A stretch of 64,000 nt of DNA, taken from positions 257,241-321,240 of the forward strand of contig MU058045.1 in NCBI GenBank assembly GCA_013265495.1, written 5' to 3'. Below, piece after piece: positions 37,871 to 46,228 of this stretch. A program made the position numbers and the translations under genes. How positions within the stretch are numbered: position 1 is the first letter of the stretch; each line of letters opens with the position of its first letter. The notes below the pieces were generated by a model. It was not told where the DNA came from. It did not search any database and saw nothing but the letters and a program-made list of their open reading frames with translations. The stretch comes from Vicugna vicugna. Taxonomy: Eukaryota.

Positions 37871-40473
37871 GGGGTGGCTCAGGGAGGCCTCCCTTTCCAA
37901 ACCTCCCGGCCCACTCAGAAGGCGGGGAGGGGGACTTGGCCACAGGCTCTTCTCGCGTGGAGTCGTCACACGTCGAGGAGCGTTGGGTGGACATGGATTT
38001 CCTCACCGGGACTCGTGTTTCTCCCAGACAGAGAGGCCCATTCCCTTCTCCGGACCTGGGCCTTCGAACAACTGGGGTGGTGTGGAGGGGGTTTCCCCTC
38101 CCTTGGGACACAGGTCCTCGGTGTGTGGAGACGCGGAAGTGCTTTCCCACGTGGAGGTGTGCTTTCTCACGAGGGGGTGTGTTTTCCCATGTGCAGGGTG
38201 AGGTTTTTTTTTTGCCGCCCTGGACACATGTTGGCTCCCTCAAAGAATTTCTGCGGGGATTTGTTCCCCAGAATCCTGTTCCCTCATGCCTTCTCCCACC
38301 TCCTCCCTCCTCCCACCCCCTGGAGACCTTGGAAGTGTTGTGTTCTCAGTGACCCTTGGCCACCAGATGACACAGGGTGGTGCCTGGGAAGTAGCGAGTA
38401 AATCACAGCCCCCCTCCCTGCCCCCACCCCAGCGAAGCATGTTTATCCCCCGTGGCACAATTCAGGTGAAGCCTGGTTTCCACAGATGACAGACGCAGAT
38501 TCCCTGCCGGGGGTGGGGGGCGGGGAGGAGGAGAGCCTGCATCCCTGTGCTGCCTGGGAACTTGTCTTCCCACGGGTCCAGGACGCACTTCTCTGAGTGG
38601 AAACATGTTCTTGCATGTGGATGTATGTTTTCCCATGCAGACGGCCCCTTTCTCTCCAGCACTTCCCTGCATCCCCCAGGCCTCGGGCCCAGCACTTCAT
38701 TTCTCCTCACACAGCAGGTGGGAACAGATGTCAGAATGACAGAAGCTGAGGGGGATGTACAAACCCTGAGTGGGTGCTCTGCCTCTCCCTCCCCCAGAGA
38801 TGCCCAGCTTGGGGGAGGGGGACATGGCACCTGCCACCCACAGAGGCCATGCATGTTTGACCAAAGCCCTCACTGGGGCCTGAGGACAGCCCTTTCCTCA
38901 GTCCTCCGACCACTGCTCACCTGTGCCAAACTGGGGAGGTGGGTTTGAGGGGAGAAGACCCCCAAAATATGCCAAGGATGCCCCAGTCCTGGGCCAGGGT
39001 AGGTAAATGTGGGGGCAGGTGGAATATAGGAGAGGAAGAGGTGGCTGTTAAAGTGGTTCCACCTGTGTCCCTCTTCTCCCCACACCATGTCTCAGCCCTT
39101 CCTCTCTGCCTCTGTTCTTCCTCCCCCTGGTGTCAAACCAGCTTCTCCCCTCAGCTACCCTCCCCCTCCTTTGACCTTCCCCCTCTCCCCTGGGCCACCA
39201 GGGATGAAGGAAAGGAGCAGTGGAGGAGGGAGGGGAGAGCAGGGGACAAGGGCTTCCCGGGACAGCCTGGGGAGAAAATGGGGTCAGCTGTGCTGAGGAA
39301 CAGATGGAGGGGGCAGTGGGGGACGGGGCTTGGGTAGATACAGGCAGGAAGAATTTGATTTGAAAGGACGTGTGTAAGGTGACTGCCCAAAGAGAAAGGG
39401 TTTGGGCCTCTGGAGAAAAGAACGATGTCAAGGAGGGTTTTAAGGGACACCAGCAGAGAAGGAGTGCATCCTCGTCTGCCGGCGTCTCGTGGGTTTGTTA
39501 GTCCAAACCTGAGTAGGGAGTGGAGTGCTGTCTTCCACTGACACCCAAATCCAGAATCCCTGGTCTTGGCTCCCCAGAACTTTGCCTCCTGACTGTCCCT
39601 TCTGTCCCACCTCCACCCGTGGAAACTTAGTTCTTTTCCCACCCTTTCCCCTGCCTGGTCTAGCTCCTTCCCAAACAGCCATGCTCTCTAAATGCTAGGG
39701 ACCTGGGCCCTGAACCCTGTAGACAGATGCCCCCCAAATTGGGGCATGGGAGGGGGGCTGGGGGACCCCATGATTCAGCCACGGACTCCAATGCCTAGCC
39801 CCTCTCCCCAGAACAATTTCCTTACAATCCCATGTCCCCATCCCAACCCTTCGCGGCTCTGTACACATTTTTAAACCTGGCAAAAGATGAAGAGAATATT
39901 GTAAATATAAAAGTTTAACTGTTGGTTGTACCGGCTGTCGTGTTAGGAGATGGGGGTGGGAAGCTCCAAAGAAAAGAGCCTGGGGAAGTGACTCTGCTGA
40001 TGAGGGGGAGGAAGAGGGGTTCTGAGCCCACAGCCCTCTTCAGTGAACAGCTCTGATGTCAAGAGAAAGGGGGAGTAGGGTTCGGGGTGAGGTTGTCATC
40101 GTAATAGGCTTGTCTGGGGAGTTGGAATCAGGATCAGTCTCTGTGCAGGGGTCAGAACCTGGTGTAGAGAGGACCGGGTAGGGGTTGATGGGGGCAGACA
40201 CCGGAAAGGCCGGAGGGCCTATGGGCTGGGCTGGGAGGCGGGCTGCAGGAGAGATATGTGAAGTGAAGGGTTTGGTCTCTGCTAAGGCATGGGCCCAGGC
40301 CGGGGGATCGACATGGGCCCAGGACTCTCCCCTTGGCACATTGTGAGGGAGAGCCCCCCCATCATTGTGACCCGTGTACCCCCAGGAGCCTCTGGGACAG
40401 GAATGTGGGCCGGTGGATTCTGTGGGCACAGTGGGCTGGGGGTCTAAGGGCCCCAGTGGCCCTAGGGACCCCC

Positions 40474-41701
40474 ATGGCCATGGCTGAGCGCCCCCGGCCT
40501 GGGTGGGCCTCATACCACAGCCCCAACACCAACAACTGCCAGGACCTGGGCAACTCCATTCTGTTGCTGCTGGGCCTCATCGTCTGCATTAACATTGGCA
40601 TCAATATGGTGACGCTGGTCAGGGTGGGGCCGGGCGGGAGGGTGCTGGCAGCATGGCTACGGGGCGGGCCTGGTGGCCAGGGCCAGCCCAGGGTCACTGT
40701 GTCCTCCCCCACCCAGCTCTGGCGCAGACTCCGTGGCTTCTTACACCAGGTATTCCGTGTTATTTGTGAGAAAGGTAAGTGGGGGTTGGAGGAGGAGGGG
40801 CAGAAACTAGGTGTTTCAGCCCTGACCCTGAGCTGGCCCCTTTCCCTCCTGCTCTCCCCTCCCAGACACCATCACTATGCAGCTCCTCTCCTTGCCCCCC
40901 GCCTCTCCAACTCTGTAGGAGCCAGGCTCCCACCAGCCTCTCACCTCTCCCTGATCCACAGAAGCTTCTAAGTCACGCTCACCTGGGAAGCAGACCCAGC
41001 CCCTGAAGCAGTGCTCCCAGGCAGTTCACCTTCGATGCACCGTGGACCCTGTGAAAATGACCATGACCCCCCCACCCACTCGCCGCCATCGCCACCGAGG
41101 CTCTGCAGCGCGTCGTACCCGCCGCCTGGTAGACTGGGTCCCTGACACTTATGAGGACAACGAGGAGGAGAGGCCTCCACATCAGCGCACAGTAACCTCG
41201 CACAACTGGGATTGCCCCGAGGACTGGGATGGCTTTCAGTCCACCCAGAGGTTCTGGACTCCCTGGGCCCAGGACGCCGTGGAGACACCCACCCAGACCA
41301 TCCGCTTCCAGCAGACTATAGAGGAAAGACCCCTCAAAAGAGAGATGCAGTCCGAGCTGGGCCTAGAGGCCTACGTGTACCCTGTGAACCCCCCGCCCCC
41401 CAGCCCTCAGGCCCTGAGCCACAAGAACATTGGAGGAGGGACGGGGGCAGGAGCCCAGGCGGAGCAGGAGCAGTGTTTGCCAGCCCAGCCACCCATCCTG
41501 GGCCCGGCCAACGTCCCGGACATCCCCCGGCGCCGCTCCTCAGGCCGCATAGCGTATGACGCCAGGGACGTGAGGCGGCGGCTGCGGGAGCTGAGCAGGG
41601 AGGTGGAGGCCCTGTCCCACTGTTACCCCCTGGGCTCCGGATCCAGCGCTGCTGAGGGGACGGACAAGGACTGGGTATACCGTTCCATGAAAGAGAGGTG
41701 A
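40474..41701 (+). CDS. SPEM1: Spermatid maturation protein 1, about 313 aa
   Basis: Exons 40474-40617, 40717-40774, 40962-41701. MAMAERPRPGWASYH, CQDLGNSILLLLGL TM segment, C-terminus YDARDVRRRLRELSREVEALS...KDWVYRSMKER. AATAAA at 41712-41717. Confidence 0.93.
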
Positions 41702-45478: not shown

Positions 45479-46228
45479 CGAGCAGCAAATGGAGGTGGTG
45501 GGGCGGAGCGTGGAGAGAGGAAATAAAGAGCAACCAGAGTCCAGGAAACATGGATGGTGTGTGGCCTGGAAGAGCCACTCCTTGGCTTCCTGAAATGAGA
45601 AGCCAGTGTTCCCTTCTTGGCCTGAGGGTCCCCTTGGCTTAGTGGTTGTGGTCTTGCCAGCATGGTCCTGCACTAACTAGATTTGAAGCTGCAAATCTAT
45701 GGTTCTCTGGGCACCTACTCTGTGTCTCAGCACTCCCTGTCCCCCCAGGGGGCTCAGAGGGCTCAGCCTCACCCAAGAAACTGTGGTCAGATTCCAGACT
45801 TGGAGGTGCCACATCTGGGCAAATCCAGGCCCACGCCCAGTGAAGGGCATGAAGAAGGCCAAGGTCCAGGATTCTAGCCAGGCGTTCCCTAGGGCTGAGG
45901 CCAAGGTCTTCCTAGTCTCAGGAGTGATAAGGGAGATAGAATGTGTGTTTGAACGAGTGAGTCAGCGGGTAGTGAGGGAATGTCTGACCGCTGGAGGGGA
46001 GGTGTGCTGGCCTCCCAACCCTGTTTGACTGTCCAGGTTCAGGTGACCTGAACCTAGTTACCAGGGAATGCCATCCTGGGCCCTCCTTTTCCACCTCCTC
46101 CCTCATTGTGACCCCAGCCACCTGCCCTATTATGACCCAGTCCTTCTCCACCTCCCCCACCAGAGGGGTCTGGCTCTTAGTGAGTATGTGGGGGCCAGGG
46201 GGCCCAGATAGTCCTGGGACCCCTGGCC

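Follow-up and report, generated by a model that had tools for sequence, protein, structure and literature searches.

Paired copies of a known spermatid promoter motif core, likely functional, upstream of SPEM1, SPEM2 and SPEM3 in Vicugna vicugna

What could switch on three paralogous genes together in spermatids, and is the short sequence that recurs twice before each of them a new promoter element? The question is raised by SPEM1, SPEM2 and SPEM3 in a 64,000-nt stretch of Vicugna vicugna DNA (assembly GCA_013265495.1, contig MU058045.1, positions 257,241 to 321,240, forward strand), hereafter the window. An initial annotation of this sequence had proposed a paired YATT(G/A)TGAC element, at a fixed spacing of 24-25 bp, as a spermatid promoter module retained since the triplication and not described before. 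As argued below, the SPEM pairs are a real and likely functional variant, doubled and truncated, of a spermatid promoter motif the core of which is already known (Jung et al., 2019, PMC6615865). Novelty could not be upheld for the core: with its G/A wobble it has been published as the Crem-t (Atf1) motif (PMC6615865), and a full version is the CRE/NR (cAMP-response element/nuclear receptor) element of mGPDH (Rajkovic et al., 2010, PMC2853129). Statements on the literature apply throughout to the accessible parts of the papers cited.

The motif, C17P.I37 or "Crem-t (Atf1)", was derived de novo from mouse post-meiotic promoters, where it was found on both strands; reversed, it reads C-W-T-T-R-T-G-A-C-g-T-c-a, with G at.69 and A at.29 in column 5 (Jung et al., 2019 eLife, PMC6615865). 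In this matrix, 9.2 bits fall in columns 1-9 and 2.4 bits in columns 10-14, the most invariant columns being T-G-A (6-8); the cut at columns 1-9 was chosen after the SPEM copies had been seen. The six copies, with scores and ranks on columns 1-9 unless stated otherwise, are as follows.

40339 to 40347, plus strand: SPEM1 copy A, CATTGTGAG, 12.2 bits, rank 11
40363 to 40371, plus strand: SPEM1 copy B, CATTGTGAC, 13.95 bits, joint best
43515 to 43523, plus strand: SPEM2 copy A, CATTGTGAC, 13.95 bits
43540 to 43548, plus strand: SPEM2 copy B, CATTATGAC, 13.06 bits; on 14 columns 14.3 bits, rank 3
46104 to 46112, plus strand: SPEM3 copy A, CATTGTGAC, 13.95 bits; on 14 columns 14.6 bits, rank 2
46128 to 46136, plus strand: SPEM3 copy B, TATTATGAC, 11.1 bits, rank 23

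All six positions and the spacings of 24, 25 and 24 bp agree with the initial annotation, and so does its placing of the second copy 101-136 nt before the ATG: copy B lies at 111 nt (117 nt from the second ATG), 136 nt and 101 nt in SPEM1, SPEM2 and SPEM3, respectively, and all copies fall within 101-161 nt upstream of the ATG. The consensus itself was slightly too narrow, as five of the copies fit YATTRTGAC and SPEM1 copy A (CATTGTGAG) ends in G. YATTRTGAC occurs six times in the window (0.70 expected; six reached in none of 100 shuffles), five of these occurrences falling in the SPEM promoters. On columns 1-9, the copies score 11.1-13.95 of 14.1 bits and rank 11, 3, 2, 5, 1 and 23 of 127,984 positions, from SPEM1 copy A to SPEM3 copy B, the top 11 thus including five of them; among the 92 matches of at least 8 bits, the only same-strand pairs 20-30 nt apart are the three SPEM pairs. 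On all 14 columns, the distal ones being of low information in the matrix, the scores are 8.8-14.6 of 19.8 bits and the ranks 44, 33, 18, 3, 2 and 30 of 127,974, and one further pair, 42883/42909, exceeds 8 bits. At least two matrix matches per promoter were obtained in 40, 49 and 89 of 5000 shuffles for the three promoters. None of the copies contains TGACG, and the promoters are CpG-poor (observed/expected 0.24, 0.09 and 0.14).

Has the pair been retained, or simply inherited? Since the SPEM genes are paralogous, the proper null is decay since duplication. In the 200 nt before each ATG, which formed the input of a de novo dyad test, an 8-mer (one mismatch allowed) present twice per promoter at equal spacing (+/-1) in all three was matched by one of 400 shuffles, and by none of 400 once low-complexity words were excluded. 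Between paralogues, the motif block reaches z 2.7 to 7.2 (the block being set by the motif, hence post hoc) and exon 1 reaches z 6.5 to 11.1, while the spacers (z -1.5 to 1.5) are at shuffle level, the DNA 100-300 nt upstream gives z -0.5 to 0.3, the nearest 100 nt gives z 0.4 to 1.9, and the introns, the ends of which were set 1-3 nt off, give z 0 to 2.4, the highest value belonging to SPEM1/3 intron 1 only. The claim that the flanking DNA has diverged is therefore borne out between paralogues, spacers and far upstream DNA being near shuffle level. Might the pairs be a neutral remnant of the tandem triplication? The copies are not independent, the genes being paralogues, and a fair degree of conservation extends to the orthologue flanks (92 of 199 codons). 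Yet all six copies persist between paralogues whose spacers and distant upstream DNA have decayed to shuffle level and whose introns come close to it, and the copies fit a matrix derived independently; neutrality is the least credible of the explanations considered.

Regarding other species, orthologue bases were read from predicted proteins running through the upstream region, which fix only some of the bases. Exon-1 matches were screened for long extensions (182 for SPEM1, 90 for SPEM2 and 190 for SPEM3), and ten SPEM1 peptides were chosen by hand, one per lineage or distinct sequence; their rows were anchored on copy B, which every listed extension that is long enough contains. Codons are the same as in the camelid at 30 of 30 places in copy B, at 22 of 30 in copy A and at 92 of 199 in flanks and spacer, the last count being lowered by indels in an ungapped comparison. 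Copy B is motif-compatible in all ten peptides. Copy A is compatible in five of laurasiatherian type (zebra, bear, a bat and two further records). Marmoset and squirrel monkey show a tolerated change in it, from T to C at column 3. In the titi monkey, the macaque and the primate-like P0436 it is unable to match, the best possible scores being -9.2, 4.9 and 2.9 bits in these three. The 24-nt spacing is kept in nine of the ten SPEM1 peptides, where copy A is placeable. In other words, both sites and their spacing are not kept together across species, and fixed pairing is not required where SPEM1 copy A is broken (three of ten peptides). The expected conservation in orthologous promoters thus stands for copy B in every peptide that reaches it, but fails for SPEM1 copy A in macaque, titi monkey and P0436.

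Two deer SPEM1 models begin at an ATG in copy B, which would carry there a tolerated G-to-A at column 5; like the T-to-C at column 3 in monkeys, this change at a wobble column counts in favour of a site read as the matrix describes. For SPEM3, both copies are compatible and 24 nt apart in P0166, and hedgehog models begin at the ATG of copy B. None of the 90 SPEM2 protein matches extends to the motif; P0533, an antisense peptide (47% identical) from a profile-free search of the antisense frame (two matches, one relevant), keeps the copy A core and the 25-nt spacing, only the first three bases of copy B being visible. Scans of metagenome and prokaryote contigs with the exon-1 alignment returned no relatives among 373 and 13 candidates, and a second metagenome scan returned one locus among 68 candidates, L001, a whale-like SPEM1 copy without exon 1, in which copy A is intact and copy B reads CGTTGTGAC, which says little either way. 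As read from these sequences, the motif appears kept across placental orders and the pair is not obligatory. Matrix match, paralogue retention and orthologue peptides together support the view that a spermatid promoter element has been retained since the triplication, and the SPEM pairs very probably function as such an element.

Besides, L001 (1-2331) is 92% identical to gray whale over 60 aa, with exon 1 deleted, the last exon disrupted and the promoter largely intact. Whale records show several SPEM2-like, SPEM3-like and neuroligin-2-like copies, which suggests that the SPEM cluster was duplicated in cetaceans. The N-terminal extensions of the NCBI SPEM1/SPEM3 models P0044, P0051, P0212, P0448, P0458, P0462, P0478, P0487 and P0491 are upstream region translated in different frames, so their start codons are probably mis-set.

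Does the pair act in the DNA or in the mRNA? One feature of the SPEM2 promoter bears directly on this.

43477 to 43512, plus strand: TATAAA at 43477 and an initiator-like YYANWYY with its A at 43508, 31 nt later; SPEM2 only

These two signals would place the SPEM2 pair downstream of the start, at +8 and +33, which speaks against a promoter site and for an element of the 5' untranslated region, binding a protein or providing an upstream AUG for mRNA storage or translation. Such an RNA element is also suggested by the sense orientation of all six copies, by the ATG within the A-type copies and by the NCBI models of several species that run through the region. On the other side, no TATA was found before SPEM1 or SPEM3, and the diverged SPEM2 orthologue P0533 cannot read TATAAA at that place; the same-strand orientation follows from duplication; no unusual or shared fold was found over the motif pairs (z -1.1, 1.1 and -1.0), and Rfam gave five weak matches, all far under the gathering score. 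The published motif moreover occurs on both promoter strands (PMC6615865), and the mGPDH element is active upstream of a foreign core promoter (PMC2853129). An RNA element is accordingly very improbable. As for the geometry of the pair, helical phasing was rejected as an argument, 24-25 bp being 2.3-2.4 turns. A bacterial promoter scan, which is not applicable to this DNA, gave no result. Separately, an X-box-like GTTACCAGGGAAT at 46057-46069, 47 nt before SPEM3 copy A, has two mismatches to the RFX consensus and is a possible RFX2 site.

Closer to the start codon, the shared GGCCC...CCT..GACCCC leader reported in the initial annotation is present indeed (z 1.9, 3.8 and 2.6 between paralogues), and a hairpin is predicted over it in each gene.

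40438 to 40473, plus strand: SPEM1 predicted leader hairpin, abutting the start codon
43632 to 43675, plus strand: SPEM2 predicted leader hairpin, abutting the start codon; stands out only weakly from shuffles (z -0.9)
46193 to 46228, plus strand: SPEM3 predicted leader hairpin, abutting the start codon

The predicted energies are -27.8, -30.1 and -30.5 kcal/mol for SPEM1, SPEM2 and SPEM3; local windows matched for GC content equal these values in 2 of 268, 0 of 67 and 1 of 379 cases, and against shuffles z is -3.4, -0.9 and -2.5. Covariation is thin: among 14 consensus pairs, both partners differ in one. Across 13 distinct SPEM1 orthologue peptides, 9-13 of 13-14 leader codons are kept, and some simian changes would, by hand reading, break stem pairs. 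A general role in translational delay is doubtful, since SPEM3 protein is present from step 5 (PMC13711846). The hairpin is best considered as a lead from modelling, and the conserved leader could as well be a DNA site.

Which factors, then, would read the motif? In the explanation preferred here, to which about even confidence is given overall, each SPEM gene has two same-strand Crem-t cores, likely proximal promoter sites derived from one ancestral gene. CREM-tau would likely sit on the RTGAC half of each copy and a partner, for which SOX30 is the best candidate, is predicted on the overlapping C(A/T)TT(G/A)T tail, so that the three genes would be switched on together in spermatids; the doubling would offset the weak distal CRE half, in an additive rather than strictly spaced manner. 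This assignment of CREM-tau plus a tail partner is itself evenly poised. It draws on a 26-nt human mGPDH element holding CTTTGTGAGGTCA, which confines LacZ expression to spermatids and is bound by both CREM-tau and GCNF (Rajkovic et al., 2010, PMC2853129), and on the exact RTGAC in five of six copies. In Crem-null testis, Spem1 and Spem2 are down, listed at -5.2 and -4.79 (PMC3285179), and in Sox30-null testis Spem1 is lost, a co-regulation by SOX30 and CREM being proposed by the authors (PMC5732304). By chromatin immunoprecipitation (ChIP) in mouse haploid cells, a single CREM peak lies in the cluster (mm9 chr11:69628597-69629279) and is H3K4me3-positive; measured from the Spem2 start, its summit is 3027 nt downstream (Martianov et al., 2010, PMC3091680). 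Scaling the SPEM2-SPEM3 distance of 2589 by 3725/3176 (mouse/camelid SPEM1-SPEM2) gives ~3040, so that the peak probably marks the Spem3 promoter, and that one only.

Several observations weigh against the preferred explanation. CREM binding to the mGPDH element in vitro needs distal bases (PMC2853129), and these are lost from the SPEM copies, which have 2-4 mismatches of 8 to the CRE TGACGTCA and nowhere an exact TGACG half-site (one mismatch in all six). Of the high-confidence CREM peaks, none starts, ends or has its centre at the start coordinates searched for mouse Spem1 and Spem2 (PMC3091680), and MEME on CREM peaks without a CRE gave no alternative motif. Two copies break the SOX core (ATTAT). 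Crem-null and Sox30-null mice both arrest at round spermatids, so the drops in expression may be secondary. When the window is cut into 630 overlapping 200-nt tiles, 27 of them also contain at least two matrix matches, so that clustering by itself is not rare. To these are added the unmatched SPEM1 copy A in three peptides and the placing of the SPEM2 TATA, both described above.

The main rival starts from the same observations: the octamer CWTTRTGA would be the site of another spermatid factor, without CREM or SOX30, the SPEM promoters carrying the bare site doubled and the CRE-like tail of the published matrix coming from a subset of composite sites. The split of information in the matrix, 9.2 bits in columns 1-9 and only 2.4 in columns 10-14, suits it, as SPEM keeps exactly the first part; so do the CREM peak missing at two of three mouse promoters and the reservations of Jung et al., who saw no clear database match and called the CREM-tau assignment speculative (PMC6615865). 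Against it, the matrix retains both a TGACGTCA palindrome and RTGAC flanks of CREB type, CREM-tau does bind the mGPDH version (PMC2853129), and one CREM peak probably lies at Spem3; the proposal of another factor is unlikely.

Alternatively, both copies might be high-mobility-group (HMG) sites for SOX30, or SOX5/6, that bend DNA, TGAC being incidental. The SOX core CWTTGT is exact in four of six copies, SPEM2 copy B departing from it at one base and SPEM3 copy B at two. An A or T at column 2 of the matrix, a SOX signature, points the same way. So does the SOX30 ChIP consensus, ACAAT (PMC8136829), exact on the minus strand in four of six copies, as does the loss of Spem1 in Sox30-null testis (PMC5732304). 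Yet the most invariant columns, T-G-A (6-8), lie partly outside the SOX core, and the G of the core gives way to A in two of six copies and, in the matrix, at a frequency of 29%, which makes a pure SOX site improbable. The supplementary files searched for two papers with SOX30 ChIP contain no Spem entry, peak files not being among them.

The copies have also been considered as nuclear-receptor half-sites, for GCNF or a similar receptor, through which the genes would be repressed or timed. TGACCY is exact in four of six copies, the GCNF half-site being AGGTCA, and CREM and GCNF compete for the related element of mGPDH (PMC2853129). However, the copies fit neither an extended GCNF half-site nor a DR0, having 3-5 mismatches to the GCNF-type TGACCTTGA; the inverted-repeat spacing of half-sites leaves 2-5 mismatches; and SPEM1 copy A is without a half-site and still kept in five laurasiatherian-type peptides. 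A nuclear-receptor role is thus highly improbable.

Returning to CREM-tau and its predicted partner, a broader proposal may be advanced, tentatively and as less likely than not: the orphan Crem-t motif would be, instead of a CRE variant, an overlapping SOX30/CREM-tau composite or the site of another spermatid factor, the CWTTRTGA half of which could work alone when doubled at ~24 bp. In the SPEM promoters this half would occur naturally in isolation, and each mRNA would have a start-codon hairpin kept since the triplication. The surprise is limited, since the core motif is known. No mention of the doubling in SPEM, of a missing distal half or of a SOX core overlapping the motif was found in the literature searched, Spem2/Spem3 papers included, subscription journals (original Spem1 paper, other SOX30 ChIP papers) being outside the search; nor is anything on the SPEM element present in the accessible parts of PMC11742055, PMC13616282, PMC4498915, PMC13241807, PMC2655690 and PMC2249607, the two "novel" testis motifs of PMC2655690 not being compared as matrices. 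Jung et al. did not settle which protein binds this motif, the one with the strongest link to post-meiotic transcription (PMC6615865), nor did the Sox30 knock-out paper settle how SOX30 and CREM-tau cooperate (PMC5732304). As the 5' half survives in the SPEM copies without the half that CREM needs in vitro, six short oligos make the binder question directly testable. Normal mouse sperm requires all three SPEM genes, so the sites are also candidates for non-coding infertility variants.

The three genes follow in tandem, SPEM1, SPEM2, SPEM3, all on the plus strand; their start codons lie at 40474/40480, 43676 and 46229, respectively.

40474 to 41701, plus strand: SPEM1 coding span, 3 exons
43676 to 45478, plus strand: SPEM2 coding span, 3 exons
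46229 to 50121, plus strand: SPEM3 coding span, 3 exons

At the peptide level, exon 1 of SPEM1 shows 100% identity to a Camelus ferus record and exon 1 of SPEM2 to Camelus records, and many named SPEM3 proteins match SPEM3 exon 1; all three peptides match Pfam PF15670 (Spem1), two of them under the Pfam cut-off, being short fragments. Expression is post-meiotic, like that of genes with the Jung motif, judging from the mouse orthologues only: Spem1 and Spem2 are markers of elongated spermatids, Spem2 mRNA is haploid-stage and SPEM3 protein is detected from step 5 (PMC13711846).

Elsewhere in the window, the best 14-column matrix match, at 16.6 bits, is CTCTGTGACCTCAC at 42254-42267, between SPEM1 and SPEM2, bordering what is presumably a MIR repeat, and further matches lie at 42289 and 42339, besides the pair 42883/42909. 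Four same-strand motif-core matches fall within 140 nt at 63550-63691, apparently in an intron of what we take to be CHRNB1. Runs of N at 36948-36986 and 37500-37805 (345 bases) lie in the last-exon region of the gene upstream of SPEM1, presumably a neuroligin gene.

How do the SPEM pairs compare with known systems? They resemble the SOX30 site (PMC8136829) by ACAAT on the minus strand in four of six copies, and differ from it in that two copies have ATAAT and the conserved unit reaches TGA(C), past the HMG core. With the canonical CRE/half-CRE (Martianov et al., 2010, PMC3091680) they share RTGAC in five of six copies and the one CREM peak of the mouse cluster, whereas they have neither TGACG nor the palindrome, and no peak is listed at the Spem1/Spem2 start coordinates searched. 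A third comparison is with the CRE/NR element of mGPDH, also of proacrosin and testis ACE, which begins CTTTGTGAG (12.4 bits on the matrix) and is likewise a CpG-free CRE-like site, sufficient for spermatid-specific expression; it is single with an intact distal GTCA, where the SPEM copies have CCC-type bases. Its 5' tail lies outside the listed mutations, and SOX/HMG is unmentioned there, "sox" being absent from the main text (PMC2853129). A fourth is with the motif of Jung et al., which sits in promoters of post-division germ-cell genes and whose columns 1-9, read on its reverse strand, the SPEM copies match, CpG-free and with the same G/A wobble; "Spem" and "sox" are absent from the main text, and no pairing is reported for the motif in its accessible part (PMC6615865), whereas the SPEM copies, mostly without the distal gTCA half, stand in pairs 24-25 nt apart.

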